A DNA stretch of 64,000 nucleotides, from contig OZ243972.1 in NCBI GenBank assembly GCA_965214705.1, positions 640,001-704,000 of the forward strand, written 5' to 3'. Shown one piece after another: positions 34,672-56,600 of the stretch. The translations under genes were made by a program, and so were the position numbers. Within the stretch, counting starts at the first letter, position 1. Each line of letters begins with the position of its first letter. The notes beneath the pieces were generated by a model. That model made no database searches and had not been told where the DNA came from. It saw nothing but the letters and a program-made list of their open reading frames with translations. The stretch comes from Alphaproteobacteria bacterium. GTDB taxonomy: Bacteria; Pseudomonadota; Alphaproteobacteria; UBA828.

Positions 34672-34764
34672 GGAGGGATGGCCGAGTGGTCGAAGGCGGC
34701 GGTTTGCTAAACCGTTGTACGGTGACAAGCCGTACCGTGGGTTCGAATCCCACTCCCTCCGCCA
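34672..34764 (+). tRNA. tRNA-Ser (GCT)
   Basis: GGAGGGA/TCCCTCC acceptor stem, anticodon loop TT-GCT-AA, long variable arm, GTTCGAATC, 3' GCCA. Confidence 0.97.
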
Positions 34765-34889
34765 TCTCTCCTGCTCGACTGTATCCAGGAGGCGCCAAAA
34801 AACATCTTAGAGTCCGCAGCTTACCTCGACTTATGCCGTTGTCTGTTCCCACCGCTTTGTATATGTTCCCAACATTGGTGTTGGCATGA

Positions 34890-36098
34890 ATGTGGGGATG
34901 GGAAGTGTCGAAACTGACAGCTGCGGGGATACGGAGCCTGAAGACGCCTGGCATGCACGGCGACGGAGCCGGGCTCTACCTCAAGATCTCACGCACCGGC
35001 GCCCGGTCGTGGATACAGCGCGTGGTGATCTCAGGGAAACGGCGAGACATCGGTCTGGGTCGGTTCCCGGATGTCGGCCTTGCCCAGGCACGCGATAGTG
35101 TAACGAACAACCGCAGGCTGATCGCGGCCGGCGGCGATCCGCTCGCCGAGAAGCGCAGGGTCGCCACCCCAACGTTTCGGGAGGCCGCCGAGCGCACGTA
35201 CGAAGCGAACAAGCCGCGCTGGCGCAACGGCAAGCACACGGTGGGCTGGTGGCAGTCGCTGGAGCGGCACGCCTTCCCGATCATCGGCGACTTGCCCGTT
35301 GACCAGATCGGCCGAGAGGACGTGCTGCGCATCCTTACACCAATTTGGCATGTACGCATGGAGACCGCGCGGCGCGTCAGGCAGCGCATCCGCACGATCC
35401 TCAAGTGGGCCATGGCTCACGGATATGTCGAGAACAACGTCGCGGGCGAGACGATCGACGGCGCGTTACCGCCCATGCCGAGGGTCAAGAACCATTTTCG
35501 AGCGATGCCTTACGGCGAGGTGCATGAGGTGATCGAGGCCGTAAGGGGATCGAGAGCCTCCCTGGCGTCCAAGTGGTGTCTCGAGTTCCTGATCCTGACA
35601 GCCGCGCGGTCAGGCGAGGCGCGCGGCGCTTGCTGGTCAGAGATGGATACGGACACCGCCACTTGGACCGTCCCGGCCGAGCGCATGAAGGCCAAGGTCG
35701 AGCACCGCGTACCGCTCTCGCCTCGCGCCATGGCAATCCTGGCGGAAGCCAAGTCCATCCAGCATTTCGCGAGCGACCTCGTGTTCCCGTCTCCTCTGCG
35801 GCCGGGCAAGTCGATGAGCGACATGACCCTGACCAAGCTGCTGCGCGATCTCGCATTCGCCGATCGCACCACAGTCCACGGATTCCGGTCGAGCTTCCGG
35901 GACTGGGCGGGCGAGTGCACAAACGCGCCGCACGCGGTCATGGAGCTCTGCTTGGCCCACGCGGTGGGCAGCGCCGTTGAGGCGGCCTATGCGCGGTCTA
36001 CGCTGCTTGAGAAGCGCCGCGCTCTTATGGAGCAATGGGCGGCCTACCTGGAGGGCGAGGAAGGACGCGTCGTGCCGATGGTGCGCCACCTTGGATAG
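34890..36098 (+). CDS. P4-like tyrosine integrase
   Basis: HGDGAGLYL, GLGRFPDVGLAQAR, TAARSGEAR, RMKAKVEHRVPLS, HGFRSSFRDW, LAH, AYAR; the true start may be GTG at about 34905. Confidence 0.95.
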   Translation: MWGWEVSKLTAAGIRSLKTPGMHGDGAGLYLKISRTGARSWIQRVVISGKRRDIGLGRFPDVGLAQARDSVTNNRRLIAAGGDPLAEKRRVATPTFREAAERTYEANKPRWRNGKHTVGWWQSLERHAFPIIGDLPVDQIGREDVLRILTPIWHVRMETARRVRQRIRTILKWAMAHGYVENNVAGETIDGALPPMPRVKNHFRAMPYGEVHEVIEAVRGSRASLASKWCLEFLILTAARSGEARGACWSEMDTDTATWTVPAERMKAKVEHRVPLSPRAMAILAEAKSIQHFASDLVFPSPLRPGKSMSDMTLTKLLRDLAFADRTTVHGFRSSFRDWAGECTNAPHAVMELCLAHAVGSAVEAAYARSTLLEKRRALMEQWAAYLEGEEGRVVPMVRHLG

Positions 36099-37270: not shown

Positions 37271-37274
37271 TCCT

Positions 37275-37679
37275 ATGGTTCGAAAAGGAACGCGCCCGCC
37301 TGGATGCAGGGTCCAGGACGGGCGCGGCGGATCTCATAATCGACACGAGACCGCAAATAACTTAGCCCGCACCCGCGGCGCTCGCAACAGCGCCACGGTC
37401 TACCCTGCCCGCAAGCCCGCATGCCCGACCTGCGGGACACCGCCGGCGACCAAGACTGTGCTCGAGGTGGGCGTCGAGCTGCAGGAGGTCCTGCCGAAGA
37501 CCAAGCACGGCGAGAGCGGCGGCAAGAAGCCTAGGAGCTCGGACGTCGAGCGCCGGATCCGCGAGGCGCGGCGGTCCCACGATCCCTGTGTGGAGATCGA
37601 GCGGATCCGCCACGAGCAGGGCTACCCTGAAGGCTGGTTCGAGCAGATCGCGGGCCTCTGCGGGATCTTGCCCCCGTGA
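37275..37679 (+). CDS. hypothetical protein with CxxC
   Basis: CPTCG; GTGA overlap with the primase start. Confidence 0.5.
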   Translation: MVRKGTRPPGCRVQDGRGGSHNRHETANNLARTRGARNSATVYPARKPACPTCGTPPATKTVLEVGVELQEVLPKTKHGESGGKKPRSSDVERRIREARRSHDPCVEIERIRHEQGYPEGWFEQIAGLCGILPP

Positions 37680-40132
37680 AGACGTTGCTCGACTACCTCC
37701 GCGAGGACGGCATCGAGCCGCGCAAGGAAGGCAGCCGGTGGGTGGCGCTCTGTCCCTTCCACCAAGAGAAGACCCCATCCTTCAGCATCGATCTCGAGAA
37801 GGGGAAAGGAGGCCTCTACAAGTGCTTTGGCTGTGGCGAGGGGGGTGATTGCGTCACCTACCTCGAGAAGGCCCGTAAACTCACTAAGAAGGCGGCCCTT
37901 CGCTTGCACAAAGGGTCGCCTTCTAATGGGGCACAACCGAGCCGTGAAGGCCTCGACCGCTCCCCGGATCACAAGGCCAACGCCAAGCCTAAACAACCTC
38001 CGTTCGTTACCGAGCTGCCCCGGAACGCGCTCGCGATTTGGGATTACGTGGACGCTGAAGGCCGGCTCAAGTTCAAAATCGCGAAGCTCCCGCCGGGCCC
38101 CGACGGCAAAAGGAGGTTCTGGCCCTACACGCGCGGCAAGAAGGGGAACAAACGCGGCTGGATCATCAAGAACCTCATGAAGAAGGATCGCCCGCTCTAC
38201 CTTCTGCCCCGGCTCCTAAAGGCCCCCAAGGGCCAGCAGGTCATCGTCGTCGAGGGCGAGAAGTGCGTCCACGCGACGCTCGAGGCGTTTCCGAAAGCCT
38301 GCGTCACCACTTGGTCACACGGCACCCAATCATGGCGGCTCACCGATTTCTCGCCGATCTACGGCCGCAAGGTCCTGCTCGTCTCGGACGCCGACGAGAC
38401 CGGGCGCGAGGCGATGACTGGAATCGTTCAACTTCTCGTGAAGCACGAGTGCAAGGTGCGCGTCGCGCTCCCCCTCGGCGAAAGCGGTGACGACATTGCC
38501 GACGAGTTCGAGAAGGGCGGCACCGAAGGCGCCGCCAACTGGCTCAAGGGCCTGGCGAAGGACTACGAGCCGCCGAAGCTCCAAGTCGCAGTTACACCGG
38601 GCTCGGGCGAAGCCGCGGACACGCCGGGTGCCGGCGGTACCGCAGACACGCCGGATGAGCGCGCGGCCCCAAACGCGCCGGACTCACCGGACGCAGGCGA
38701 AGCCACAGATACGACGGATATAGCAGACAGCACGGACTGGACTAAAGATCTCCTTAAGCGAGCGGAGAATGACCCCGGCGCTCCGTTCGAGCCGGAAATC
38801 GTAGAGAAGATAAGGAAACTTAAGCACACCAACATGGCCTCGTGGATGCGCCTTAGAGCCAGTCTGCGGTTCAAGGCTAAGGTGCCTGTCGGAGAGCTTG
38901 ACAGAGAACTGAAAAAGAGGAGCCAAGATCTGGAACTCCTAGCCTCGCGAGGGCAGACATTGGAGTGGCCGGAGGATGAGCTCTGGCACGACAAAGTAAA
39001 CGGTGACGAATTGCTAGGTGAACTGGCCGCACAGTTCAAATTCCATGTCGACATGTCGGAGGCGCAGGCCGATACCGCGGCACTATGGGTCATGTATTCG
39101 TGGTCACATAATCAATGGGAAATATCGACCTTCCTGAACATCACAAGCGCGACAAAGCGGTGCGGCAAGTCCCTGTTGGTGGAGGTGATTGAGGAATTCG
39201 CAATTCGCCCGCTGAACTTAAGCGGGCACACAACATCGGCAGCTCTATTCCGTACGATCGAGCAGCATCGGCCAACAATTCTTCTCGACGAGGCCGATAC
39301 GTACCTTAGAGAAGATGAAAACTTGCGTGGCCTAATCAATGGCTCTCAACGCCTAAAGGGCGCTCAAGCATTGCGCATGGTCAAACTGGGAGACATTTGG
39401 CAACCAGCTTGCTTTGCCACATACTGCCCCAAGGTCATCGTCGGAATCGGCACTGTTCCCGGTACAATACTTGATCGCTCAATCGTGATTGAGCTGGAAC
39501 GTCGCACGTCGGGCGCCAAGAATATGCCGTTCTGGGGGGACCGCAATAAGGAAGAGACGCAAGCCATCCGGCGGAAAATGGCCCGATGGACGAATGACAA
39601 TGGCGCGTCGCTGGCTAAACCACGGCGTGATGTGGTCTTCCCGCCCGGCCTCCACGACCGGGCCCGCGACGCTTGGGCACCGTTGCATTCGATCGCCGAA
39701 TGCGCAGGCGGAGAGTGGGCCGAGACAAACGGTCGCGCGTGGAGAGCCTGCATGGCCATCACGGCTGCTACCATCGATGAGACGGACATAGCAGAAATAC
39801 TGCTGGCCGATATGCGGCAGGTGTTTTACGAAGCAGCGGATCCGCCGCATCTGCCAACCGGCAAACCTGACGCTGCTTACGACAATTTTAGTCCCGCCAT
39901 CCTCCCGGCACTAATCGCAATGGAGGGGCACCCTTGGTCGGAATATTCACGCAATCGGCCACTATCTCCGCGTGGTCTGGCGAAGCTGCTCAAGCGCTTC
40001 AAGATCACGCCGTGCACGATCCGGCTCGAGGCGGGTGCAACGCCGAAGGGATACAAGCTCGAATCGTTCGTGCCGGTTTGGAAGCGCTACGACATTGGCA
40101 AGCCCGAGGACCCTCCCGATCCTATGGGCTGA
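37676..40132 (+). CDS. primase/replicase: CHC2 zinc finger, TOPRIM and DUF3631-type ATPase region
   Basis: CPFHQEKTPSF..YKCFGCG; VVEGEKC..DADETG; SATKRCGKS, LLDEAD, LSPRGLAKLLKRF..KGY. Confidence 0.9.
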   Translation: MKTLLDYLREDGIEPRKEGSRWVALCPFHQEKTPSFSIDLEKGKGGLYKCFGCGEGGDCVTYLEKARKLTKKAALRLHKGSPSNGAQPSREGLDRSPDHKANAKPKQPPFVTELPRNALAIWDYVDAEGRLKFKIAKLPPGPDGKRRFWPYTRGKKGNKRGWIIKNLMKKDRPLYLLPRLLKAPKGQQVIVVEGEKCVHATLEAFPKACVTTWSHGTQSWRLTDFSPIYGRKVLLVSDADETGREAMTGIVQLLVKHECKVRVALPLGESGDDIADEFEKGGTEGAANWLKGLAKDYEPPKLQVAVTPGSGEAADTPGAGGTADTPDERAAPNAPDSPDAGEATDTTDIADSTDWTKDLLKRAENDPGAPFEPEIVEKIRKLKHTNMASWMRLRASLRFKAKVPVGELDRELKKRSQDLELLASRGQTLEWPEDELWHDKVNGDELLGELAAQFKFHVDMSEAQADTAALWVMYSWSHNQWEISTFLNITSATKRCGKSLLVEVIEEFAIRPLNLSGHTTSAALFRTIEQHRPTILLDEADTYLREDENLRGLINGSQRLKGAQALRMVKLGDIWQPACFATYCPKVIVGIGTVPGTILDRSIVIELERRTSGAKNMPFWGDRNKEETQAIRRKMARWTNDNGASLAKPRRDVVFPPGLHDRARDAWAPLHSIAECAGGEWAETNGRAWRACMAITAATIDETDIAEILLADMRQVFYEAADPPHLPTGKPDAAYDNFSPAILPALIAMEGHPWSEYSRNRPLSPRGLAKLLKRFKITPCTIRLEAGATPKGYKLESFVPVWKRYDIGKPEDPPDPMG

Positions 40133-40178
40133 CACTCCTACGTACTCGATCCATCAGTGTCGAATACGGCAAACTCGT

Positions 40179-41090
40179 CTACGCTCGTTTCGTTATCGTC
40201 TCCGCCAGCGAGGCCTGCACGCCGCCGAGGTCCAGTTCGCCGTCCTTGTCCGGGCTGACCGCTTCGAACCGCGTGAACCCGAGCAACGAGACGACCTCGC
40301 GCAGCCGGTGCACCAGTACCAGCTTGTCGACGGTGCCGAGCAGTCCGTCCTCGCCGGAGTCCCGGGACCCACGCTCCGGCGTCTCGGCGTGAAATGTGGA
40401 CCGTGGATCGTCCTCGCCGATTCGTGCATCGCCGTTGTCGAGGATTTCGAACTCGGCGGCCTCGATGGGGATGTCCTGCCGTTCCCCGCTTCCTGCCTGG
40501 CGCGTGAATTCCGAGATCACTATATCGTCGGCAACATCTTCGAAGGCCGCATCGAGCTCCGGTATCCTGCGGAAGTTCTCCAGCATCCCCAGATCGTCGG
40601 CCGCCTTGAGCCGTTCGTAGTGTCTCGATACCTTCGCGGCCAGCGCGGCATCGAACTCCGGCAGAGAGATGACGCGCATCGTCTGCGGGAAGTAGGCATC
40701 GCTCGCCGTGCGCACCAGAAGCCGATACGGCTCGCCGCAGGCTTCCCGGGCATACAGACCGATCCACGGCCGCTTCCCCTCGTAATGGCCGAGCGCCCCG
40801 GTGCCGGGGCTGGATGCTTCGTAGAGCGAACGTTCCTCGCCGCATTCGTACACGCCGAAGGTGTCGCCGATGTCCGCGCCGGTGCCGCACTCTTCCAACC
40901 ACAGCGGCTATTCGCAGGTCCTGCCGCTCGAATGAACGAACACCCTCCAATCGAGATCGTCGATGTGGCCCTTGCAGCAGCCGCATACGAAGCGCACCGG
41001 GACCACCGGCCAGGGCTTGCCGTCCTCGTCCCGGAACCGGCGCTTGTCCAGGTGCTCCCATCGCACCAGACTTCGGTGGCGCCATTGCGG
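40179..41090 (-). pseudogene. drmB: DISARM DrmB (DUF1998-type) internal fragment with an internal stop
   Basis: VPVRFVCGC.KGHIDD, RPW, LLVRTASDAYFPQ..VISLP, LVHRLREV..LLGFTRFE; the C-terminal DUF1998 domain is missing. Confidence 0.7.
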
Positions 41091-41329
41091 GTCGCGCCAC
41101 GGGATGCCGCGCAGATCGACGGGGTCGAGCAGCAGCGCCCGGACATCGACGTACCCGCGGTTGGCGGCCGCAGCGACCTGCCTGGCGATTATCGATTTGG
41201 CCGCGTCGGGCGGCCCCCAGACTAAATGGTCGGCTGGCGGGCCTAGACCAGGAGAGCGAAGACGTCGGCGAGCTCGCTCGGGCGCAGTGTGTAGTCGGCG
41301 GAGATGGTCTCGGGAAGGGTCATCGGCAT
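41090..41329 (-). pseudogene. MoxR-type AAA ATPase N-terminal fragment
   Basis: LRPSELAD..WGPP..AKS..DVRALLLDPVDLRGIPW, with stops and a frameshift. Confidence 0.65.
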
Positions 41330-41479
41330 GCTCCGGATGGCAGGGAGGCGGCGCGGGCTCCCACCGGGTGCCCAACCGTCACCGGGACCTCAGCGGCCCT
41401 CTGCTCGTTGTGCTGCGGGGGCTTGTAGCCGGCACGCCATGCGGAGAGCCGGCGCCGGGCTGGCGTGTGCGGGCAGGCG

Positions 41480-41760
41480 CTGACCGGGCTGGCCAGGTTT
41501 TCGAAATCGCCGCCGGCGACCGGGGGAACGCCCGTCACCTCTGGAAGCGGCAGGAGCGTTGGCGACAGCGTGTGGCCGATGCGTCGCTCAAGCGCCGCGT
41601 AGGTGTGGTAGAGGTCGCGACGGAGGTTGGCCGCCCGGCGCAAATCGGCGCGTGATGCCAGGATGCAGAAGCTGCAACTCAGCCTCGACATGCCGGCGGA
41701 GTATCGATAGCCCTTTCTGCCGTGTGCCCCGGAGGTGGTGAAGGCGTCCGATTGCCGGCG
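41480..41760 (-). pseudogene. PAPS-reductase-family C-terminal fragment
   Basis: Y.AGMSRLSCSFCILASRADL..AA..YAALERRIGHTLSP. Confidence 0.65.
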
Positions 41761-41913
41761 TGGCGGCCAATGCCTGCCGAAGGCACCGCGGTCGCCGTCC
41801 GAGCCCGTCGCGCGGCAAATGAATTGAGAGATGGGCCGTGCGGATGCTACAGCTTGCGCCGTGCTCGCCACGGAACGGCCAGTTCAACACTAGCCGGCGA
41901 TGGAGATGTCCGC

Positions 41914-42177
41914 ATGATCGACGAAGCCGCCTTGACGAAAGGCCAGCTCCGAAAGCTGAATGCCCTGCGCAAGTCTGTCGGCCCTGCCATTGCCGACGAG
42001 GCATTTTCGAAATGGCTCGAACAGTCTGTCGGAGCGCCGAAGACGGACGAAAATGCCGAAATCATCTCCAATGCCTTGTGGGACATGATCCAGGAAGGCA
42101 GGCTTTCGATCCGACGCGGCGGTTATGTCGTTCGGCGGGGCCGGGGGCGCGTGATCGTCGAGCCCCGCGAGAACTGA
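41914..42177 (+). CDS. hypothetical 87-aa protein
   Basis: GGAG RBS; LTKGQLRKLNALRKSVG..RRGRGRVIVE. Confidence 0.7.
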   Translation: MIDEAALTKGQLRKLNALRKSVGPAIADEAFSKWLEQSVGAPKTDENAEIISNALWDMIQEGRLSIRRGGYVVRRGRGRVIVEPREN

Positions 42178-42186
42178 CGGCCCGGA

Positions 42187-42498
42187 TTGCAAGAAGAGTC
42201 AGGGAGCGCTCAACTGAGCAAATCGGATCTTGTGCGACGTATCGTGGGAGAAACCGGACTGACCAGGCCGGATGCCGAGGCCGCCGTCAACTCCATGCTG
42301 TCCGGCATCGCCGCTTCACTCGCGCGAGGGGAGGCCGTCAGCCTTTCGGGCTTCGGGACCTTCGGCACCAGGAGCCGCCCCGCCCGCACGTGGCGAAATC
42401 CGAGGACCGGCGAGAGCCTGAAAATCGCCGCCTCGACCACGCCGACTTTCAAGGCCGGCAAGCCGTTGCGGGATGCCGTGAACGCAGGCGGGTCCTGA
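42187..42498 (+). CDS. HU-family DNA-binding protein (non-ATG start)
   Basis: SKSDLV, GFGTF, RNPRTGE, FKAGKPLRDAVN. Confidence 0.88.
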   Translation: MQEESGSAQLSKSDLVRRIVGETGLTRPDAEAAVNSMLSGIAASLARGEAVSLSGFGTFGTRSRPARTWRNPRTGESLKIAASTTPTFKAGKPLRDAVNAGGS

Positions 42499-42659
42499 TC
42501 GGCGTGGCCGCCGGCCGAGGACAAGCGGGGACAGGAGAGGCCGCATGTTGAATTCGGCTGCATTCCATTCGAAGACAGCGCGTGCTCCGGCGGAACCACC
42601 AGGCCGAGGGAAATCAAGCCGGGACAACGGGTTGATGCACGGCCACCGTCTCAGCTACT

Positions 42660-44350
42660 CTTGAGTAACTTCTCTCTAAGCCGTTGACATAGAGGCATTT
42701 GTGTTTTTGTTGTCGTCGTCGATCTCGACCAGTTGGAAGCCGAGCTTCTTGGCCTGTCGACGGAGCGAAGAGAACTTTCGGTCCAGGCGTCGGCTCTCGT
42801 AGACCTCCATCCCCTTCTCGGCATATTGCTGGCCGCGGGTCACCATCAGGTAGATCAGGCAGGCGAGTTCTCGGGCGGTGGCGACAACGGCTACGCTGGT
42901 GTCCATCCGGGCGAGGCGGCTGCGGTGCTTGGCGCCGATGAAGGTTTGGCTGGTGCGAGCGGTCATGGCCGCCATGCGCAGTGCCTGGCCAACGCGGTTG
43001 ACCACCTTGGGCCCCCGGCCCGGCAACGGTTTGCCGCCGCTGATCCTGGTCCCAGGCGCCAGCCCCAGCCAGGAACTGAAGTGCTGTGCGGAGGGAAAGG
43101 CGGAGAAGTCAGGACCGATCTCGGCGGCGATCACCAGGGCAGTGTTGACGCCGACGGTGGGGATTGCGGTGAGATCGACCCCCATCATCTTATGCAGCGC
43201 CATAGCCATGGCCTTATCCTGCCCGCGGAGCGCCCTGCCGCTGCTGCTTGGGGTCTCGTTCGACGCCGTGCCCGATGATCCGACACTGGGAGTGTCCTCG
43301 GGCGTACCCTCATCCGTCGGATCGTCCGGCGGGGTCAGGTGCTCAACCTCCGCCATGATCCGCGCCTCGCAGTCCGCGATCTGCTGCTCCAGAAAGTCGT
43401 AGCGCTGCATCGCCTGCTCAAGCGCGAACAGGTGCTCCTCGCGCCAAGTGCCCTCCAGGCTCGCGGCAATCGTGTCGGCGCTGGCCTTGATCCGCCTGTC
43501 GCGAAGCGACGCCAGCCGCCCGGGGTCGCGCTCGCCGGCGATGATCGCCCGCAGGATGCGCTCACCCGTCTTCCCCATGATATCGCTGATCACCGAGTCC
43601 AGACGCACGTTCATCTGGGTCAGCGCCTTCTGCATATGCAGCACGCAGCGAGAGCGGTCCTCGATCAACTGCTTCGCCTGGCGCATGAAGGAGCGCAACG
43701 GGCAGATCGCGTCGCCCGGCCGGAAGGCGCCGCGCAGAAGGCCGTAGGACATCAGCTGCCAGATCCACTGGCAGTCCAGCACATCGCTCTTGCGCCCGCC
43801 GATCTGCTTCGTCATCCGGGGCGGCACAAGCATCACCTCGAAGCCGGCTCGATCCAGGACCTCGTAAACCGGGATCCAGTAGACCGAGGTCGACTCCATC
43901 GCCACCTTCGTCACACCGCACGACTTCAGCCACTCGGCCATCGCATCCAGGTCGCGCGTGAACGCGCCGAACTCCCTCACCGGTTCCTCGGCTCGCTCCG
44001 GATCCACCGCCACGAAGTGCCGGTCCTTGCCGATGTCGATCCCGGCGCAATTCGGGTGCACTACCTTGAGGCGCTGCCTCCTTCTCCGCTTGCGCGCCAT
44101 CGAGAGCCCTCCCAAACTCCGTTGACGTTGCGGGTGGGGAGGAACCGCGGCGAAGTCTCAATCTCTTGAACGAGGTCACGGGCGAACCCGCGCCATCAGT
44201 GACAGAAGCCGATCACGGTTCGGGCCAAGCTTCCAAACGGGTGCCCTCGCACGCCACTGAAGGGACGGCCTCGTCTGCCCTACCCGCTACCACTTCACGC
44301 TTCAACCGTCGAAGACTCAACCCCAGTCGAAGACTCTACCCCCAGTTACT
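42660..44350 (-). mobile_element. IS110-family element with a ~250-bp non-coding leader
   Basis: TACT at both junctions (42656-42659 and 44347-44350); joining the ends gives the palindrome AGTTACTC-TT-GAGTAACT. Confidence 0.7.
42676..44100 (-). CDS. IS110-family transposase (DEDD recombinase)
   Basis: GIDIGK, AMESTSVYW, KSDVLD, WLGLAPGTRISGG; GGAGG RBS. Confidence 0.95.
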   Translation of the reverse strand: MARKRRRRQRLKVVHPNCAGIDIGKDRHFVAVDPERAEEPVREFGAFTRDLDAMAEWLKSCGVTKVAMESTSVYWIPVYEVLDRAGFEVMLVPPRMTKQIGGRKSDVLDCQWIWQLMSYGLLRGAFRPGDAICPLRSFMRQAKQLIEDRSRCVLHMQKALTQMNVRLDSVISDIMGKTGERILRAIIAGERDPGRLASLRDRRIKASADTIAASLEGTWREEHLFALEQAMQRYDFLEQQIADCEARIMAEVEHLTPPDDPTDEGTPEDTPSVGSSGTASNETPSSSGRALRGQDKAMAMALHKMMGVDLTAIPTVGVNTALVIAAEIGPDFSAFPSAQHFSSWLGLAPGTRISGGKPLPGRGPKVVNRVGQALRMAAMTARTSQTFIGAKHRSRLARMDTSVAVVATARELACLIYLMVTRGQQYAEKGMEVYESRRLDRKFSSLRRQAKKLGFQLVEIDDDNKNTNASMSTA

Positions 44351-44694: not shown

Positions 44695-45558
44695 TTAACC
44701 ATTTGGATCAAACAATTGAGCGAGTTCAGTTACAATTTCGTCTATGCTAAGAATTGAGGTGTTCAGCGCCACTTTGTCAGCCAACGTTGGGCTATATTGG
44801 GTAACCTCGTCCTTTGATATTTCATGCCAAATTGGGAGAATACGACTTCGGCCCTCAATTTCAAGATTTACCAAGCCATCCAACTCCCGCTGGGGCCACT
44901 TCTTTGCAATAAAATGTCGAGATATAATCACTATTCCAAAACGTGATTGGACTAGCCCTTGGTCAATTCTCTGTCGCAAACTATCCCCTATCTTTAGAGT
45001 GAACTCATCATACCAAACCCTTGCTCCTTTAGCTCGAAGAGCTTCCGCTAAAGCGTGAACAAAACTGTCTTTGTCTTCACTAGCATGAGAAATAAAGAAA
45101 TCATAGCTATCTCTAGGTTGAGGAGCTAGTTGGCGTGACACAACCGGCGTGGATTGCAATGTTGCACGAGACCTTATTTCCCTAGTGATTCTTCTTTCGT
45201 GTTGTTCGCGCTCACGAATTTGCTTTTTCTCTTGGTCGGCACGTCTTTTTGCCTCCCTTTGCACTTCTTGTGAGTGTCGGTCCTGACATGAGTTCAAGCT
45301 TCTTGACTTATCCGATATTTTTCTGGAGATATCCGCTCTCCGCTTTTGAACATTCGCCAAATCTTTCATCGCGCGCTCGGCTTCTCGCGCCTTACTCTGA
45401 AACGTCGAGGAACTTCTTGTTTTGGAAGCAGCTTCGTTAGCACGGTTTATTTTCGCAATAAGGTCAGCTTCCCTTCTTGCTTCTCGAGCGTCGTTAGCAC
45501 GGAGGTCCGCGATTTCCTTCGTAAAACGATTGATCTGGTTTTGGTTAGCGGAGGTCAT
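44695..45558 (-). CDS. coiled-coil plus TIR domain protein (TcpB/PdTIR-like)
   Basis: Helical N-terminus; YDFFISHASEDK, VWYDEF..GDSL, KWPQRELDGL, ILPIWH. Confidence 0.92.
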   Translation of the reverse strand: MTSANQNQINRFTKEIADLRANDAREARREADLIAKINRANEAASKTRSSSTFQSKAREAERAMKDLANVQKRRADISRKISDKSRSLNSCQDRHSQEVQREAKRRADQEKKQIREREQHERRITREIRSRATLQSTPVVSRQLAPQPRDSYDFFISHASEDKDSFVHALAEALRAKGARVWYDEFTLKIGDSLRQRIDQGLVQSRFGIVIISRHFIAKKWPQRELDGLVNLEIEGRSRILPIWHEISKDEVTQYSPTLADKVALNTSILSIDEIVTELAQLFDPNG

Positions 45559-45901
45559 TTTTCTCTTGGCGGAACTGGGAGCGCTGTTGCGCCGGAAGGA
45601 AAAATGTCGATGGCCCAGTCGCATTGCTGCGTCCGGCTATATCGGTACCGTGTTGAAGCCGCTCCGGGTGCAGAGGCCGCCTTCGGGTGTAACAGTCTCT
45701 GTACGACCGACCTTTATGAAGGATCTGATAGGCGACGAGGCGGTAATTGCTGACCGAGGCGGAGTTGCTGCTACAGTATCTTTCTTCGTTGAAGTAGATG
45801 TCGAAATTATCGTCGCTGCAGTCGGCAAGAGTGTGGGCTTGAATCGCGAACAGATCGATCGAGCAAACGCGGTTGAGGACGGTAGTCATGCGCGGCATCA
45901 C
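45545..45901 (-). CDS. orphan ORF inside the TIR operon
   Basis: Fills the gap exactly (9 nt after the ThsB-like stop, overlapping the next start); no recognised motif. Confidence 0.35.
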   Translation of the reverse strand: MMPRMTTVLNRVCSIDLFAIQAHTLADCSDDNFDIYFNEERYCSSNSASVSNYRLVAYQILHKGRSYRDCYTRRRPLHPERLQHGTDIAGRSNATGPSTFFLPAQQRSQFRQEKNDLR

Positions 45902-45910
45902 TGCTTCGCC

Positions 45911-46516
45911 TTAGGAGTTGGCACGCCGCATGGGCTGGCTCAGGTCGTAGCCACAGTTTGCTCGGTTACGAAAGGCAGCTTCAATCAGAAATTTGAGAGT
46001 CTCGCCGTTTATTCGTTCCCAGGGAACGACGGAGATTGTGACATCGGATTTCATGAGGTTGTCGATGAGCCGGCTTGGCATGCGGGGATACCGACGCTCG
46101 TACTCCGCTCGTTTGTCGATTGTTGTCCATGACGTAATATTTGGATACAATAATCGCTTTTCTTGTTCCCCATAGGGTGCGTGAAAATAGTCAGAAATCC
46201 CAGGAAGATTGATAACTACAATGCCCGATCTCTTGTTGACCGAGCCATCGTACATGCTCGAATGAATTTCCCAATCGACGTGTTTTCGCCGTCTGGTCTC
46301 TGTACCGACCAAAACAACGGTGACCGTGGAGTCCCTGAGATAGCGGTCTCTGATTGCCCGACGAATTTGTTCATCGGTCCATGTGTGAGGAATATCTCCG
46401 GTATCGACAGACCTGTCGACAAATATTGAATAACGCTCGCCAAAGTCTACTAACGCTTCCTTGTACCTTTGATCGTTATCATGGTGATAACTAATGAATA
46501 CTTTGTGCATAGCCAT
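45911..46516 (-). CDS. ThsB-like TIR protein (DUF1863 type)
   Basis: HKVFISYHH..DQ, IRDRYLRDSTVTVVLVG..T..RKHVDWEI. Confidence 0.9.
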   Translation of the reverse strand: MAMHKVFISYHHDNDQRYKEALVDFGERYSIFVDRSVDTGDIPHTWTDEQIRRAIRDRYLRDSTVTVVLVGTETRRRKHVDWEIHSSMYDGSVNKRSGIVVINLPGISDYFHAPYGEQEKRLLYPNITSWTTIDKRAEYERRYPRMPSRLIDNLMKSDVTISVVPWERINGETLKFLIEAAFRNRANCGYDLSQPMRRANS

Positions 46517-47330
46517 TCTTATTTGTAACGATTTGATGTAAACCACGGGATACGATGTCGACTGCCTCTTGGATATGAGGCGTCCGAGCTAGGACATAGT
46601 TTTCCTCCTGGGAGAGACCGTTGTGTAGATCGTCCGGGGAATAGTTGCGAAAACAGTCTCTTCCGGACCAATCCTCGCGCGAGCCTCCCCAGCGTTCGGA
46701 GAGCCCGAGTGTTTCCGCGATGTCGCGAGCGCAGCCGCCGAAGCCGCCCAGCAGGAAGACCGGCTGACCGGCGTCAAGCGAGAGGTATGTCTCCTCGGCG
46801 ATACCCGGCATGGCGCCTTTGAATCCCTCGACTCTGCCGCCCAGAACGATCCGAGCAGATATGTCGGCGAGCATGACGGTTCGCATTGAGGTCAGTCCTT
46901 TCGCCCATTCATACTCCTGAGGTGCATGCGCAGGAAGGCTCATACGTTGTTCCCGTTCAAGACGTGCGCCGTCCAAGGAAAGGAAGACGAGGTGAGCGGC
47001 CGGCTCGTGGTCCGCAGAGAACGCTGCAAGTTCGTTCGAGGTCATGCTGATGTGCACCGGCCACGCCAGGTAGTCTGTCACGACTATGGTGCCGGCGTGC
47101 CGCGGATGACCCCGATAGCGTCCAACCAACTCGGCCAAGAGCTGGGTAAACCCGTGTTGTCGCAGATCCCCGCCGTATGCCAGACTAATTCCAGAAGCGA
47201 GCAAGCGCAGTGCAACCTCAGCCATGGCGTCGCGCAAATGTCCGTCGCTCAGGCCGAGGACGCGGAGGTCGGGGCTCTCTGAAATCGAGATCCCGACCGA
47301 GGGGGTTGTCTCCGCTTGGGGTGAGGTCAT
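46491..47330 (-). CDS. stand-alone SLOG (cluster-2 type) domain protein
   Basis: GISISES, LAYGGDLR, LTSMR, ARIVLGG..FKGAMPGIAEE, PVFLLGGFGG. Confidence 0.82.
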   Translation of the reverse strand: MTSPQAETTPSVGISISESPDLRVLGLSDGHLRDAMAEVALRLLASGISLAYGGDLRQHGFTQLLAELVGRYRGHPRHAGTIVVTDYLAWPVHISMTSNELAAFSADHEPAAHLVFLSLDGARLEREQRMSLPAHAPQEYEWAKGLTSMRTVMLADISARIVLGGRVEGFKGAMPGIAEETYLSLDAGQPVFLLGGFGGCARDIAETLGLSERWGGSREDWSGRDCFRNYSPDDLHNGLSQEENYVLARTPHIQEAVDIVSRGLHQIVTNKNGYAQSIH

Positions 47331-48502
47331 CGACGTTCCTCCAGCCAGTCCGTCAAGGTCTGTACGCGTACCCCCGGTGCGATTTCCCGGAACAGCCTCT
47401 CATCGTCGGCGCTTAGAAGGGGTTCAGGATATACGATCGTGTGAGCCGAGTCCTCGGCACCAAGTGGTACTGCAGCCAAAGCGATCAACTCTGGTGGGCG
47501 TGCCGTGAACAGGACTCCTGGAGCATCCGTCATATACGACCCTACACGGCAAAGCCACAGCCAAGTGCGGAAGACCTCATCCAGGAGGCAGCCTGCAACC
47601 GTCCCGATCCGGTCACTACGGTCCGGATCCATACGGACGACCGGAACGTTCCCCAGATAGGACATCCCGCGCGGATCTACATCTCGCACGCAATCGACCA
47701 CGATCATGGGCACCAGGCGACGTTTCGCTTCGATGACTTCGCGCCGGCACCATTCGCGGGATGAGTACGAATCAGTATGGACCGCTAGGAGCGCGCCTGC
47801 CCCGATCTCATGCAGCAGTACGTCTCCGAACGAAAGCCCCGGCGGGATGTCATAGACATCGAAGAAGCTGTCGAGCGGGCTGTGCGTGTGGATCCAGTCG
47901 CGAATGCTGCGTCCCACGGATTCGCCATCGCCGTCATGCTTCGAGTGGCTGATGAAGACCCGAATCTTGTCCAGATAGCGTCCGAGCGTGTCGTCTCCAG
48001 CGCCGGCGGGCCGGAGTTGGTCGAGGCCATGTCGGAGCATTCGACAGAACTCGTGAGTGAGATCTGAGGTGAGGCGTCGTGCAGGGTCTACATCGGACGC
48101 GTCCCAGCGGTCCCACCGGAGGGCTTGCTGTGCGACCCCAAGGCCAAGGCCCCGGCGGTCCATTGTCACCGGGAAGAACCCGGCCGGAAGTCCTCGCCGG
48201 TGCGCGGCATCCGCGATGGCGGATGCGTAGTCGACCCACTCGCGATCTTCAACTAGGTTCGATTCCGCCAGAACCACAACGGCGGTAAACTGCGAGTCAT
48301 CCCAGTGGATTGGCAAGGGAGTGAGCGCGCCTGGCACGGGCTGGCTACGCTCAAGGACGCTTACGGCACGCTCCTGCCCGACGCCCCGATAGAGATCACG
48401 ACCAAAGTGCGTGCGGAGGAGATCAGCAATCTGCTGTCCTTCGCGATACGATGGATGCCACACCACGTACAGCGTGAACATCGGACCTGTCGATAACTCC
48501 AT
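47327..48502 (-). CDS. TIR domain protein with an extra N-terminal TIR-like domain
   Basis: VFISHSKHDG, FFDVYDIPPG, TDSYSSREWCRRE, YLGNVP; ATGA overlap with the SLOG gene. Confidence 0.88.
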   Translation of the reverse strand: MELSTGPMFTLYVVWHPSYREGQQIADLLRTHFGRDLYRGVGQERAVSVLERSQPVPGALTPLPIHWDDSQFTAVVVLAESNLVEDREWVDYASAIADAAHRRGLPAGFFPVTMDRRGLGLGVAQQALRWDRWDASDVDPARRLTSDLTHEFCRMLRHGLDQLRPAGAGDDTLGRYLDKIRVFISHSKHDGDGESVGRSIRDWIHTHSPLDSFFDVYDIPPGLSFGDVLLHEIGAGALLAVHTDSYSSREWCRREVIEAKRRLVPMIVVDCVRDVDPRGMSYLGNVPVVRMDPDRSDRIGTVAGCLLDEVFRTWLWLCRVGSYMTDAPGVLFTARPPELIALAAVPLGAEDSAHTIVYPEPLLSADDERLFREIAPGVRVQTLTDWLEERR

Positions 48503-49127
48503 GGTGCTGAAAACCCAGTCTCACGTTCGTTCAGTAATTCGCTCATTCATTCGGCGCCGATCCCGATTGCGTTGGATGTTTGTGGAAAGCAGCCTCGGCT
48601 CCTCGTCCGGATACACGCAAGGTGGGATCAAAGGCGAACTCATGGTCACGGGTTTCTCCGTCATTGCAAGCGTCTTTCGCAGCTACTTGCATAGGCCTCG
48701 GTTCAGGCTCCCCACGTCTGGGCTGCGCAAGCCCGTCGTGGGCTGCCGTGTCGATATTCAGTCTGGATCCATTTGCGGCATCGGCACTTTCCTGGGGACG
48801 GCCTCGGTGCTGCCATGACGCCAAAGGCTATCGTTGTGGGCGCCCCACAGTGAAGTTGTCGGGTTGCGCCGTCTCGACTGGGATGATCTGCGGCCTGGTG
48901 AGGACGCTGAGGCTCTGGTACGTGGTCTCGTGGTGGCGGGTGACGAGATCGGCACGGTGCGCCGCACGGGCGGGAGGGGTTGCCCGAGAGGGCTTCACCG
49001 CCAAGATTCCAACCGTGCGCGGCTGGCGGGGTTGAATTTGGCGATCAGAACCCCAGATGTAGTGTTTTGGGCGAGGGAAGGCCATACCCGTCGTGTTCGG
49101 TGGATTTGGCCAATCAGGAGAATCCAA

Positions 49128-49559: not shown

Positions 49560-50144
49560 ATGGCACGCTATTTTTCGGGCACGAGAAGCGAATTTCTCAC
49601 GCTTGAAGCTGCATCGAAGAGGGATTTGACGTGGGATGTTTTTGTGTCCCATACCACCGAAGACGACGATGTCGCGGAAGAGGTCGCCGAGTGCATCCGG
49701 AGCTTCGGGCTGTCGGCATGGGTGGATTCCGACCATCTGGACAGTAAGCATGATGGACCGAGTATGGCGTCCATTATCCAGGGGGTGATCCGACGGTCAT
49801 ACTGCTTACTGGCTGTCGTGACGAGCGCGACGAACGAGTCGTGGTGGGTGCCGTTTGAAATTGGTGTGGCTTCCGACAGAAAGAGGTACCTGTCCACATT
49901 CGGGGACCCGCGAGTGTTACTGCCGTCATTTCTTGCGGCCTGGCCGCGCGTGAGGGATCACGCGGAGCTGCATTTGTGGTGCTCCGAGGTGAAGAAAAAG
50001 AAAGCAACGCATAGGCCAATAATCCATGAATCGTATGTAGAGGTGGCGAGCGCACAGCGCTCCAGCTACGCTAGTGACATGAGAGCAATGGCCCGAAGGT
50101 TCCCAGGGCTCCGATGGGGTGTAGGTCTGGCATGGCGATCGTAA
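49560..50144 (+). CDS. TIR domain protein (native stop displaced by the ISKra4)
   Basis: DVFVSHT..D, AWVDS, SWWVPFEIGVA, LPSFL..WP; GAGGAG RBS. Confidence 0.88.
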   Translation: MARYFSGTRSEFLTLEAASKRDLTWDVFVSHTTEDDDVAEEVAECIRSFGLSAWVDSDHLDSKHDGPSMASIIQGVIRRSYCLLAVVTSATNESWWVPFEIGVASDRKRYLSTFGDPRVLLPSFLAAWPRVRDHAELHLWCSEVKKKKATHRPIIHESYVEVASAQRSSYASDMRAMARRFPGLRWGVGLAWRS

Positions 50145-51795
50145 GTCATTGATTTAGCGCGATTGGCGGGTGGCCGTAGGCAGCCAGAATCGGGTTTTCG
50201 TGACAATCGGCCGGTGCAGGGCCGGATTTTGTCACAACGGCGGCATCCAGCAGTGGTGGGTGGGAACGCTCCGCACCGCGAGATGCGGTAGGATGCCGCG
50301 CCGACAACCCAACATCAGACCCAACATCAGGAGCGTTCCCATGCCAGTGTCGCAGTCTCTCATCGCCTCGTCCATCGACCTTTTGGGCCTGCCTGCCGAA
50401 GTCGCCGAAGCGGTCGCCCAGGTGGTGGAGTTCTGTCGCGAACAGGCTGGGTCTGACCCGTCTGCCGAGACGTTCGAAACGGTTGAGACGGGGCTGCGGG
50501 ACGCCATGAACGGCTTGGGTTGCAAGCTCCTTGGGGCCTTCGCCGAGAGCCGCGACGACGGTGCGAGCCGGATCGAGCGCGACGGACAGAGCTGGGTCCG
50601 GGTGGCGGCGACGCCGAAGACGATCATGACGACGCTCGGTCCCGTGACCTATCGGCGTGCGCGCTATCGCAGCGGCGCGAGCAGCACGTCGCTGGTGCCG
50701 GTGGACGAGAGCCTGGGCCTCATCGACGACTACCTGACGCGGCCGGCGGCGCAGCTCGGGCTGATGATGATGGGCCACTGTACGCCGCGTGAAGCGGAGG
50801 AGTTCTTCGCGAAAATGGGCGGAATGACGCCGTCGGTGAGCACGCTGCAGCGCCTGGCCCTGAGCATGCATGAGCACTGGGAGAGCGTCGCCCCGGAGAC
50901 GCTGGCCAGCATCCGTGAAACCCAGGGCATACCGCCCGATGCGGTCACCGCGTCCGTCTCCCTTGACGGCGTCATGGTGGCGCTGCGGGCCGGCGAGGAC
51001 GGCCGTGCCGAGGCGTGCTGGCGCGAGGCCTCTTGCGGCACGGTCTCCTTCCACGACGCCGAGGGCCAACGGCTGAAGACCCTCTATCTCGGCCGTATGC
51101 CCGAGAGCGGCAAGGCCGCGCTGAAAGCGCAACTTGCAAGCGAGGTCGCCCATATCCGCCGTGTGAGCCCGAAGATCAGGATCGGCGCCGTCGCCGACGG
51201 GGCCGCCGACAACTGGACCTTCCTCGAAAGCCTCTCGCCCGAGACCGAGGTCATCGACTTCTGGCACGCTTGCGAGCATCTCCGCGTGGCCTCTGACCAT
51301 GCGGTGGCGCGCCACTGGTTCGAGAAGCACCGCGAAATCCTGCGCCACGACCCCCGCGGCGTCGACAAGGTGATCCGGGCACTGCGCTACCTCCTGGACA
51401 GGGCAAAGGGGGACCCGGCCGAGATCGAGCGCGAGCTGGCCTTCTTCCGAAAGCACCGCCATCGGATGCGCTACCACGCCCTGAAGGAAGAGGGCATCGC
51501 CATCGGCTCGGGTGTGGTCGAGGCGGCCTGCAAGACCCTCGTCGCGCAGCGCTTGAAACGCTCGGGCATGCGCTGGCGGATCGACGGCGGGCAGGCGGTT
51601 CTGACCTTCCGCGCCCTGATCAAATCCGGCCTCTTCGACCGGGCATGGGATGCGCTCATGGACGCCCGATCCGGACCAGCTAACGACAACATCAGCCCAA
51701 CCGAAGTCCTGGCACTCGCTGCTTGACCAAAATGAACCAGCCCATATCCTTTAGCGCCATCACGACTGGCATATCGCCATACGAGAATCACACCC
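50117..51795 (+). mobile_element. ISKra4-family (IS256-related) element
   Basis: Imperfect IRs GGGTGTAGGTCTGGCATGGC and GCCATACGAGAATCACACCC; 8-bp TSD CTCCGATG. Confidence 0.85.
50341..51726 (+). CDS. ISKra4-family transposase
   Basis: SLDGVMV, ADGAADNW, DFWHACEH, IGSGVVEAACK..RLKRSGMRW. Confidence 0.9.
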   Translation: MPVSQSLIASSIDLLGLPAEVAEAVAQVVEFCREQAGSDPSAETFETVETGLRDAMNGLGCKLLGAFAESRDDGASRIERDGQSWVRVAATPKTIMTTLGPVTYRRARYRSGASSTSLVPVDESLGLIDDYLTRPAAQLGLMMMGHCTPREAEEFFAKMGGMTPSVSTLQRLALSMHEHWESVAPETLASIRETQGIPPDAVTASVSLDGVMVALRAGEDGRAEACWREASCGTVSFHDAEGQRLKTLYLGRMPESGKAALKAQLASEVAHIRRVSPKIRIGAVADGAADNWTFLESLSPETEVIDFWHACEHLRVASDHAVARHWFEKHREILRHDPRGVDKVIRALRYLLDRAKGDPAEIERELAFFRKHRHRMRYHALKEEGIAIGSGVVEAACKTLVAQRLKRSGMRWRIDGGQAVLTFRALIKSGLFDRAWDALMDARSGPANDNISPTEVLALAA

Positions 51796-51800
51796 CTCCG

Positions 51801-52184
51801 ATGAGCGAAGAAAAGAGCGATTTGGCAACACTGTTCGGCATCTACAAGATTCATGCCGAACTCGCGGAACAAGCTGCCAGCTCAAGAGAGAGCTTGAACA
51901 AGCTCTACTCCGGTATGGTCACGGCGATCGTAGCGGGTTCGGTGCTAATTCACCGTGTGGCCCCGGATTCCGATACGATGTGGGTATTGCCAGTTCTTGG
52001 AATTGCTGTATCCCTGTCTTGGATGATGTCGCTTCACTCAGCGACGGGACGGCTGTCCGCCAAGCACGCGGTTCTGTTGGAATTAGAATCTAAACTACCG
52101 TTTGCCTTCTTGAAGCGTGAAAATGGGTACTGGGTTGCTTTGAAAGATAGAAAGATAACGCCAGAAGTTACACCACTAATTTAG
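51801..52184 (+). pseudogene. RipA-like (8xMP) membrane protein, 3'-truncated at 52124
   Basis: YK..AELA...R...N.LY, two TM helices, W...L.S....SAK..VL.ELE..LP; the tail after 52124 comes from the transposon IR. Confidence 0.65.
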
Positions 52185-55335: not shown

Positions 55336-55920
55336 AGGGGAAGATTTCTCAAATACGACGTGCATGCACTCCCGGACTTTGACGCAGAATTTCCGGAAGA
55401 GGAGAGACTTCCACAGACATTTAGGATTGAAATCAAACAGCGGGGAACCGGAAAGTGCTACCTAAGGTGGAATGAAGTATTCATTGGGAACCCGTTGACT
55501 GACAATATAGAAGCTTCGGATGACTATCGTTTTCATGATGTATTTCACTTTGCGCATGCAGCCATACTGCACTGGTCGCCTACATTTCGCTCGCTCATTC
55601 GGCAAAAACGCAAGAGTGATGAGAAGTTCGACGAGAATCAGGACGGAGGACGAGCGATCGTAATTGAGGAAGGTTTAACAGCATATATATTTGCGTGTGC
55701 AAAGGAGTTAAACTTCTTCGAAGGTCAGTCGTCGATTTCCTTTGATCTCCTAAAGACGATTGGGAATTTCGTACGAGGTTACGAGGTGGAGCAGTGCCCT
55801 CTCAAGCTATGGTAAGATGCGATATTGCAAGGCTATTCTGTTTTCAGGTCATTACGTGAGAACAGTGGCGGCGTAGTTGTGGGCAACAGAGTAACGCGGA
55901 CCATTTCTTACGAAGAGGAG
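55336..55920 (+). pseudogene. MazG C-terminal-domain protein, 5'-truncated, with an internal stop
   Basis: IG.PLTDN..DDYRFHDVFHFAHAAILHWSP.FR.L..KRKS..DGGRA.VIEEG, GYEV; stop at 55813-55815. Confidence 0.75.
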
Positions 55921-55922
55921 GG

Positions 55923-56600
55923 ATGATGGCTGTTACGAATCCATGGGGTATCGTATCCATGGTAAGGGATTTGAGATTCCCGAACACGTTCAATCCGTAT
56001 GTCGAGCGGTGCGAGAAGTATGATAAGCCAAATGCACCGGAGATTAGAGCCTGTGTGCTTCTCGATATTTTGTGTGCGGCGGGTAAGGCCGACATTGATG
56101 CAATATGGATTGGTCGGGATCTAGGCCATCGCGGTGGTCGACGGACTGGCTTGGCACTGACTGACGATTTCTGGTTTTCCGCTCATACCAGACGATGGGG
56201 GGTGGACGTGGACCGACCCACACGTGGTCCGATAGTGCGGGAGAGGACCGCGACTATTGTGTGGGAAATGCTTGAACTGATCGAGGAAAATGTTTTTCTG
56301 TGGAACGTGTTTCCGCTTCATCCGTTTCCAAAAGATGATATGTACCGAGATCGCGCGCATATCGCGATTGAGCGCGACGCAGGCATGGTACTGCTACTCA
56401 GGTTGGTATCGTTCTTGCGGCCACGACGGATTATCGCAATCGGCAAGGACTCGGCACGAGCATTGGGCAACAAAACGGTGGAGGTGGACGTATTGGATGT
56501 ACGACACCCCAGCTACGGGGGTGAGAGGCGGTTTCGCGAGCAAATCGCTTCGCTTTACGGCTTAGGGATTTGTGATTCCCGGCCAAGCCTTCAATTGTAG
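55923..56600 (+). CDS. uracil-DNA glycosylase superfamily protein
   Basis: FNPY, GRDLGHRGGRRTG..LTD, E.TAT, WNVFPLHP, RHPSYGG; GAGGAGG RBS. Confidence 0.85.
   Translation: MMAVTNPWGIVSMVRDLRFPNTFNPYVERCEKYDKPNAPEIRACVLLDILCAAGKADIDAIWIGRDLGHRGGRRTGLALTDDFWFSAHTRRWGVDVDRPTRGPIVRERTATIVWEMLELIEENVFLWNVFPLHPFPKDDMYRDRAHIAIERDAGMVLLLRLVSFLRPRRIIAIGKDSARALGNKTVEVDVLDVRHPSYGGERRFREQIASLYGLGICDSRPSLQL

Follow-up and report, generated by a model that had tools for sequence, protein, structure and literature searches.

A Thoeris-like TIR–SLOG–ThsB cassette in a tRNA-Ser island of an alphaproteobacterium, with a candidate split TIR–SLOG receptor-effector

Gene organization of the locus

We analysed a stretch of 64,000 nucleotides (nt), hereafter the window, from an Alphaproteobacteria bacterium of the lineage UBA828 (GenBank assembly GCA_965214705.1, contig OZ243972.1, positions 640,001 to 704,000), in which five open reading frames (ORFs) on the minus strand at 44695-48502 include a candidate Thoeris-like immune cassette. 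All coordinates are positions in the window. In the order of reading, the five ORFs are as follows.

47327..48502, minus strand: TIR391, a protein of 391 amino acids (aa) with a TIR domain in its middle (Pfam TIR_2, 5e-08)
46491..47330, minus strand: stand-alone SLOG protein, 279 aa (Pfam LD_cluster2, PF18163, 3.7e-71)
45911..46516, minus strand: ThsB-like TIR, 201 aa from the ATG at 46516 (Pfam ThsB_TIR, 9e-20); the ORF with a GTG start covers 45911-46546
45545..45901, minus strand: orf118, an 'orphan' of 118 aa without a Pfam, PADLOC or NCBIfam match
44695..45624, minus strand: coiled-coil TIR, 309 aa, of the TcpB/BtpA/PdTIR/AbTir family (Pfam TIR_2/TIR, 6e-22); likely start M23 at 45558

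A first-pass annotation, which was based on the sequence alone, had described five minus-strand ORFs that overlap or nearly abut, and the ORF listing places all five as it did. The TGA of TIR391 and the ATG of the SLOG gene share the letters ATGA at 47327-47330, which were read directly in the sequence (CGTCGATGACCTCA), while the 26-nt overlap of the SLOG and ThsB-like genes at 46491-46516 follows from the ORF coordinates; both overlaps had been named in that annotation. It had further assigned a catalytic Glu to each of the three TIR proteins and had seen no effector fused to the SLOG protein. Both points hold, as E255 in TIR391, E83 in the ThsB-like TIR and E247 in the coiled-coil TIR fall on the conserved catalytic positions of the alignments, and the 279-aa protein is a stand-alone Pfam LD_cluster2 protein.

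A three-gene unit recurs across many phyla

To collect related loci, one genome per species was scanned; 149 stretches fitted the pattern, of which 87 were confirmed and the best 80 retained. In 72 of these 80 loci the gene immediately upstream of SLOG, on the same strand, encodes a TIR391 homologue, as one full-length ORF in 56; immediately downstream, 52 loci have a ThsB-like gene, which is full-length in 40. The intact trio of TIR391, SLOG and ThsB-like genes is present in 34 loci, and the ATGA overlap at the end of the TIR gene recurs in 52 of the 67 loci examined. When the window from 42 to 52.5 kb was compared with the loci by blastn, homology was found in 70 of them and fell within 45901-48519 in all save two loci, where it extends further upstream to 48694 and 48909. 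The borders of nucleotide homology lie at 45901-45915 and at about 48509, and because the homology stops at the ends of the three genes, the conserved unit is exactly TIR391, SLOG and the ThsB-like TIR. These three genes very probably constitute a Thoeris-like cassette.

The titles of the related records name Alpha- and Gammaproteobacteria, Rhodothermales, orders of Acidobacteriota, Binatia, Latescibacterota, Dehalococcoidia, Acidimicrobiia, Gemmatimonadota, Opitutales and others, and more distant relatives come from records with the titles Microcystis, Frankia and Actinoplanes as well as from metagenome-assembled genomes (MAGs) titled Planctomycetota and Bacteroidota. The cassette is spread over many phyla, mostly in MAGs. 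Nucleotide identity to the loci is 63-89% and does not extend beyond the three genes, and the distribution points to a recent horizontal spread of the cassette at 45911-48502. As near-identical copies are found over many phyla, the cassette can also serve as a clean marker for recent exchange of genes. Sponge metagenome is the label of several public runs that contain the stretch, and many of the lineages named in the record titles are known as sponge symbionts.

In many copies among the loci L002 to L065, the TIR391 gene or the ThsB-like gene is split over two to four ORFs, as in L021, L023 and L050. Two loci, L004 and L008, are cassette copies on one contig, about 31 kb apart, with SLOG proteins 77% and 76% identical to that of the window.

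In a metatranscriptomic library, five contigs that are 93-98% alike to the window fall on the ThsB-like gene, the SLOG gene and TIR391 at its 5' end; two span gene junctions, and both junctions of the cassette are covered. These contigs are a weak hint that the cassette is expressed. The coiled-coil TIR and orf118 are left uncovered by them, which is not evidence of silence. Scans of the region gave 6 promoter-like sites where 2.4 were expected, and one terminator-like site, inside the ThsB-like gene, where 4.9 were expected; neither result is decisive.

TIR391 and SLOG as a predicted split protein

We classified the domains of 85 longer relatives of the SLOG protein by counting from the table of matches. 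Proteins of 622-770 aa that combine TIR_2 with LD_cluster2 account for 53 of them; the first-pass annotation was correct in stating that TIR-SLOG fusions occur in other genomes. The others are eight TIR-SLOG-CHAT proteins (about 1200 aa, with a CHAT protease), two SLOG-patatin proteins, 14 with an AAA ATPase, two with EF-G domains, one multi-domain record and five with SLOG only. One fusion (P0121) aligns to residues 1-384 of TIR391 at 41% identity and carries its SLOG domain at 398-595. TIR-SLOG fusions are also found in the loci L076 and L078, and in L078 the fused 860-aa protein is directly followed by a ThsB_TIR gene. A SLOG-ThsB fused ORF in L059 was set aside, because a single-base indel in the 26-nt overlap may have produced it. 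A 1176-aa record labelled as plant (Tanacetum, P0129) contains Nmad2, LD_cluster2, TIR_2, MazG_C and ThsB_TIR, and is apparently a cluster of bacterial genes that a plant assembly wrongly presents as one protein.

The complex of TIR391 and SLOG was then modelled. The interface score ipSAE (interaction prediction score from aligned errors) was 0.87 in three runs and 0.01 for the best control; of 80 solved complexes 58 reached this mark, as did 2 of 110 mismatched pairs. At least 89% of contacts are common to the runs, and the predicted local distance difference test score (pLDDT) of the partner is at least 87. In the model, residues 3-69 and 360-388 of TIR391 contact residues 23-77 and 215-265 of SLOG, and the TIR domain is left free. 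On the fusions in relatives and the modelled complex, TIR391 and SLOG are predicted to behave as one split protein, that is, as one functional unit.

Features of the cassette proteins

The AlphaFold model of TIR391 (pLDDT 86.9) shows three alpha/beta domains, with the TIR domain in the centre (residues ~179-308) between an N-terminal domain (~1-130) and a C-terminal domain (~330-391) of no known family. All 36 aligned homologues keep E255 (motif REWCRRE), and this residue aligns to the Glu of the plant-TIR motif WCLxEL. The nearest structure to the TIR domain is the SARM1 TIR (Z 16.2, root-mean-square deviation 2.4 over 125 residues), and further matches include MyD88 (Z 14.9), TIR-STING (13.2), Cat1 (12.3), ThsB (12.2) and TIR-SAVED (10.8). 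The structure-comparison rows cover mainly residues 176-317, and assigned no family to the N- and C-terminal domains. A Foldseek search with the whole model returned only multi-Rossmann matches of low template-modelling score (TMq 0.16-0.28), which do not inform on the flanking domains, and a search of the ESM Atlas with residues 1-175 yielded nothing beyond unnamed clusters and TIR-like matches that are weak (0.87-0.94) and serve as leads only.

The SLOG protein scores 240.2 bits against Pfam LD_cluster2 over profile positions 6-215 of 264, where the gathering threshold is 25.3 bits. It has 1879 relatives of near length, the best 120 of which are 67-100% identical, and its clade lacks about 30 residues that the alignment shows in more distant LD_cluster2 members. 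No model in PADLOC 2.0 or NCBIfam 20 matches it. Its structure model (pLDDT 90.1) matches the folds of MHR1/2 of TRPM2 and TRPM8, TM1055, the SLOG domain of BcThsA with 3' cyclic ADP-ribose (3'cADPR; 8bto, 7uxs), LOG proteins (1rcu, 1ydh) and DprA. When the PDB was searched by sequence with the SLOG profile, no match fell below E 0.75, and thus no solved relative was found in this way. Across 30 diverse SLOG proteins, the invariant polar residues are S15, S17, D55, R57, E179, E180, N237 and N244.

The third cassette protein fits the general definition of a Thoeris ThsB, a ThsB-type TIR with a catalytic Glu, by both family score and alignment. It reaches 71.4 bits against Pfam ThsB_TIR (PF08937; cut-off 21.2) and is matched by the PADLOC ThsB models at 1e-10 to 1e-4, and E83 in the motif VDWEI is invariant in 24 of 24 homologues. 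The PADLOC candidate PDC-M50B scores 39.7 bits on it, no better than the generic ThsB models, and no neighbour matches PDC-M50A.

The coiled-coil TIR and orf118 as neighbours of the cassette

The coiled-coil TIR matches the PADLOC single-gene candidate PDC-S66 almost from end to end (1.2e-104, 347.8 bits, positions 4-280 of 282). Its matches in the PDB, at 2e-57 to 4e-49, are structures of TcpB/BtpA, PdTIR and AbTir, among them TcpB 4lzp (2.3e-57), AbTir 7uwg (1.7e-49) and 3h16. The catalytic E247 (WPQRE) lies in the stretch WPQRELDGL, which aligns to WPARELDGL of 4lzp and follows the WPxRELDGL motif of TcpB and PdTIR. With its full-length profile match, coiled coil, TIR domain and catalytic Glu, the 309-aa protein belongs to the PDC-S66 or TcpB-AbTir family; it shares the coiled-coil N-terminus, the TIR domain and the catalytic motif with TcpB/BtpA, PdTIR, AbTir and PDC-S66, and no difference from them was seen at the sequence level. 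In the 80 loci no orthologue was found, only weak cross-matches of TIR domains (best E 5e-06, versus 9e-86 for its own copy in L001). Its GC content at third codon positions (GC3) is 0.40, versus 0.64-0.67 for TIR391 and SLOG. Contigs of 3722 nt in two runs span the coiled-coil TIR together with the cassette, and this adjacency occurs only in close relatives. By these comparisons, the coiled-coil TIR is classed as an independent single-gene protein of the TcpB/AbTir type, which stands beside the cassette only in the lineage of the window.

In the case of orf118, no match was found in any of the 80 loci, and 5.8 billion proteins yielded one homologue (81% identity), whose contig is equal in size to the contig with a 98%-identical SLOG. 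In the 3722-nt contig of a close relative, 45562-45906 is swapped for unlike letters of equal length, and both flanks are 94-96% alike. Hence orf118 is probably a non-coding spacer rather than a gene, and would lie outside the cassette.

The five genes had at first been described as a single operon in which the coiled-coil TIR could serve as an alternative effector. Neither proposal is supported: orf118 occurs in none of the loci, the coiled-coil TIR gives only the weak cross-matches, homology stops short of both and the GC3 differs, and the coiled-coil TIR, which matches a single-gene system over its full length, has no link to the cassette outside the lineage.

The genomic island and a second TIR system

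The cassette lies in a TIR-rich island that starts at a tRNA-Ser gene followed by a tyrosine integrase. A Pfam scan further found in it a fourth TIR gene, TIR194, which is absent from the first-pass annotation.

34672..36098, plus strand: tRNA-Ser (34672-34764, by ARAGORN), then tyrosine integrase (integrase domains in 34890-36098), the left end of the island
49560..50144, plus strand: TIR194, 194 aa, divergent from the cassette (Pfam TIR_2, 1.7e-10; PADLOC ThsB models to 1.8e-12)
50170..51726, plus strand: transposase-like gene of the UPF0236 family, between TIR194 and 8xMP (Pfam PF06782, 6.9e-08)
51723..52184, plus strand: 8xMP, octameric membrane protein family (Pfam PF24838, 1.6e-11); likely start ATG at 51801

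A primase-like gene, HU, and IS110, IS1 and DDE transposases belong to the island as well. At its start (34672-44115), an 818-aa primase-like protein with matches to a DnaG-type zinc finger and TOPRIM is followed by a gene of the HU family and an IS110 transposase. Past 52 kb the GC content drops from about 0.64-0.69 to 0.43-0.46.

The 8xMP family was found in 13 of 301 genomes, and a TIR or ThsB_TIR gene stands directly upstream of it in 4 of the 13 other 8xMP loci (L094, L095, which is weak, L096 and L099). The transposase-like gene has a GC3 of 0.84, versus 0.65 and 0.55 for the genes that flank it. TIR194 is probably the TIR partner of 8xMP, and 49560-52184 looks like a second, two-gene system of a TIR and a membrane effector, split by the insertion of a high-GC transposase-like gene.

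In three of the distant loci (L071, L077 and L078, ~3250-10900; two from Bacteroidota and one from Planctomycetota), TIR, LD_cluster2 SLOG and ThsB genes are interleaved on the same strand with HMUDK_hel (5-hmdU DNA kinase), Nmad2 and MazG/MazG_C. The island of the window likewise holds a MazG_C gene (55360-55815) adjoining a gene of the UDG family (region 55360-56600).

Proposed mechanism and alternative explanations

From the gene content, conservation, fusions, folds, catalytic residues and modelled complex, we infer a defence function, a signal maker, an effector and the identity of a signal. The ThsB-like TIR would sense infection and convert NAD+ to an ADP-ribose-derived signal. The SLOG subunit, for which the N- and C-terminal domains of TIR391 would provide a platform, would bind this signal, and the binding would free or oligomerise the TIR domain of TIR391, which would then destroy NAD+. 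The pair of TIR391 and SLOG would thereby act as a split TIR-SLOG receptor-effector. The sensor role of SLOG is favoured by the fusions of the same clade to patatin, to TIR plus CHAT and to AAA ATPases, and by the fold matches to SLOG domains that bind ADP-ribose (ADPR) or 3'cADPR. We consider it about an even chance that the roles are distributed in this way, with the ThsB-like TIR as signal maker, SLOG as receptor and TIR391 as NADase effector, and find the reading as a whole somewhat better than even: a Thoeris-like abortive-infection cassette, with orf118 as a spacer and an independent coiled-coil TIR, in a tRNA-Ser island. Of the circuit first proposed for the locus, the part made up of the ThsB-like TIR, the unfused SLOG and the 391-aa TIR coupled to it in translation is supported: the three genes recur as a unit, and TIR391 and SLOG are fused in many relatives and give a confident model as a complex. 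The coiled-coil TIR and the five-gene scope are not supported.

Several observations weigh against this reading. The ThsB-like gene is absent or broken beside SLOG in 28 to 40 of the 80 loci, and frameshifts occur in many cassette copies, which may reflect decay or assembly error. The contigs of the RNA library may stem from DNA. The structural Z-scores of the TIR391 TIR domain fail to separate effector-type from ThsB-type TIRs (SARM1 16.2, ThsB 12.2), and while the model of the complex supports binding of TIR391 to SLOG, the confidence of a model is not binding. The TIR-SLOG-CHAT fusions can be read as a CHAT effector with a TIR signal maker; by that reading TIR391 would be a generator rather than an effector. 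Finally, papers on type III Thoeris name the SLOG protein (ThsD/ThcA) the effector and the TIRs 'B' proteins, and a passage citing van den Berg et al. 2024 describes the signalling of that system as uncharacterised.

The last points lead to the strongest alternative, that all TIR proteins including TIR391 are sensors or signal makers, and that SLOG is the effector, for example a LOG-like N-glycosidase on a nucleotide or NAD-derived substrate, to which TIR391 docks only to deliver its product. The naming of the type III SLOG as effector in papers would agree with this, as would the many polar residues that are invariant across the 30 diverse SLOG proteins, the LOG-family enzymes (1rcu, 1ydh) among the fold matches and the TIR-SLOG-CHAT fusions, which fit an order of generator, sensor and effector. 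However, because the same clade is fused to the clear effector domains patatin and CHAT, SLOG is marked as a sensor module; moreover, no enzyme in the PDB matches SLOG by sequence, and the non-catalytic SLOG domains that bind ADPR or 3'cADPR (TRPM MHR1/2, ThsA) rank first or nearly first among the fold matches. We regard SLOG as the effector as unlikely, at roughly one chance in five. The cassette, the coiled-coil TIR or both might instead act on a eukaryotic host, just as the TcpB-type TIRs of some bacteria disturb the TIR signalling of their host, and the spread among bacteria of sponges would then reflect symbiosis. The closeness of the coiled-coil TIR to TcpB/BtpA, the sponge metagenome labels of the runs and the record titles of many related loci, which name lineages known as sponge symbionts, all suit such a role, but distant members are found in the records of Microcystis, Frankia and Actinoplanes and in the Planctomycetota and Bacteroidota MAGs, SLOG is fused to effectors of the abortive-infection type, and the island that holds the genes is mobile and contains further TIR systems and insertion sequence (IS) elements, so that a host-directed function appears improbable. 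Least probable of all, and rejected on the survey of 80 loci, the homology borders and GC3, is a single five-gene operon with the orphan and the coiled-coil TIR in the circuit, the latter as a possible NADase effector activated by SLOG. That all five ORFs abut on one strand, that the coiled-coil TIR adjoins the cassette in the 3722-nt contigs of close relatives and that the sole terminator-like site of the region lies inside the ThsB-like gene would be in keeping with an operon; against it stand the lack of coiled-coil TIR and orphan orthologues in the 80 loci, the end of homology at the stop codon of the ThsB-like gene, the GC3 of 0.40 together with the full-length match to a single-gene candidate, and the free divergence of the spacer in a close relative.

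Comparison with known systems

In type I Thoeris, ThsA joins a SIR2 domain to a SLOG of the STALD type and acts with ThsB; no SIR2, STALD or PADLOC ThsA match was found in the five proteins. The cassette resembles that system in pairing a ThsB-type TIR with a receptor of the SLOG fold, and the SLOG model matches the BcThsA SLOG with 3'cADPR. It differs in that SIR2 is missing, the SLOG is a separate protein of LD_cluster2 rather than STALD, and the presumed NADase is a TIR in trans. TIR-SAVED, TIR-STING and Cat1, from CBASS and type III CRISPR, likewise couple a nucleotide-sensor domain to a TIR NADase effector. In contrast to these, the sensor of the cassette is a SLOG on a separate polypeptide, and its signal would come from a TIR rather than from a CD-NTase or Cas10; activation by filaments, if assumed for the cassette, would be by analogy only.

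Type III Thoeris, as described in the literature, is already a system of multiple TIRs and a stand-alone SLOG that lacks SIR2, and a review (PMC13276650) states that its SLOG differs from the STALD type. The phrase 'TIR-SLOG' appears in a general sense in PMC9503650, and TIR-SLOG systems were predicted earlier. No mention of SLOG cluster 2 or PF18163 was found in the papers searched, although Figure 1C and the supplements of Yirmiya et al. 2025 may list the effector class, and SLOG is not mentioned in Wang et al. 2024 or in PMC13069673.

To compare type III Thoeris directly, genomes of the phylum of the window were searched with the NCBIfam models, and ThcB4 was found in 7 of 301. ThcA follows ThcB4 directly in 6 of 6 fetched loci, with more TIR genes around, and is a stand-alone LD_cluster3 SLOG of ~190 aa. 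The ThcA profile has 1195 relatives; four of the best 150 are fusions of TIR_2 and LD_cluster3, one of which matches the ThcB4 profile at 99.9%. Because TIR-SLOG fusions occur among the relatives of both SLOG lineages, the pattern of split and fused TIR-SLOG, as judged from these profiles, is common to LD_cluster2 and LD_cluster3. Beside a true ThcB4-ThcA pair (locus L088, G071, 6696-8312), and after three TIR/ThsB genes, there is a 538-aa protein that joins an N-terminal SLOG, matched weakly by LD_cluster2 and ThcA, to a domain like patatin or CBASS lipases; it may be the effector of a second Thoeris-like system in the same island.

The locus has the layout of type III, namely several TIRs with a stand-alone SLOG directly after a ~380-aa mid-TIR gene, and without SIR2, Macro or protease. 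At the level of families it does not belong to it: the SLOG of the window has no NCBIfam match at E <= 0.01, where a true ThcA scores 245 bits (NF058525, cut-off 110 bits), and TIR391 reaches 30.9 bits against ThcB4, in the TIR region only (NF058526, cut-off 220 bits). With hhalign, TIR391 aligned to ThcB4 at 97% (E 1.2e-10) in columns 99-271 only, which is the TIR region, and the alignment of the window SLOG compared with that of ThcA gave a probability of 17.8%, which is not significant. The first-pass annotation had seen the possible novelty in the split form with its extra TIRs. This is weakened by type III Thoeris, which already combines several TIRs with a stand-alone SLOG.

The two systems thus share several TIRs with a small stand-alone SLOG, a mid-TIR gene of ~380-390 aa directly upstream of and overlapping the SLOG gene, the occurrence of rare fused TIR-SLOG forms, ThsB_TIR genes alongside and homologous TIR regions. 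They differ in the SLOG itself (LD_cluster2 of 279 aa in the cassette, LD_cluster3 of ~188 aa in ThcA), in the N- and C-terminal domains of TIR391, which do not align with ThcB4, and in the number of ThsB-type genes, which is one in the cassette and several in type III. As a tentative extension, which we hold to be possible at somewhat less than even odds, TIR391 and SLOG would form an obligate two-subunit receptor-effector gated by the signal of the ThsB-like TIR, ThcB4 would be the effector partner of ThcA, and the cassette would be an immune module recently shared among many phyla in host-associated communities. If true, one 'ThsB-like' protein of type III would have to be reassigned as an effector, and a relay in which a TIR activates a TIR would be added to bacterial immunity. 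The cassette is a sister design to the validated type III Thoeris, with a testable model in which a long TIR and a small SLOG would be the receptor-effector halves in both LD_cluster2 and LD_cluster3.

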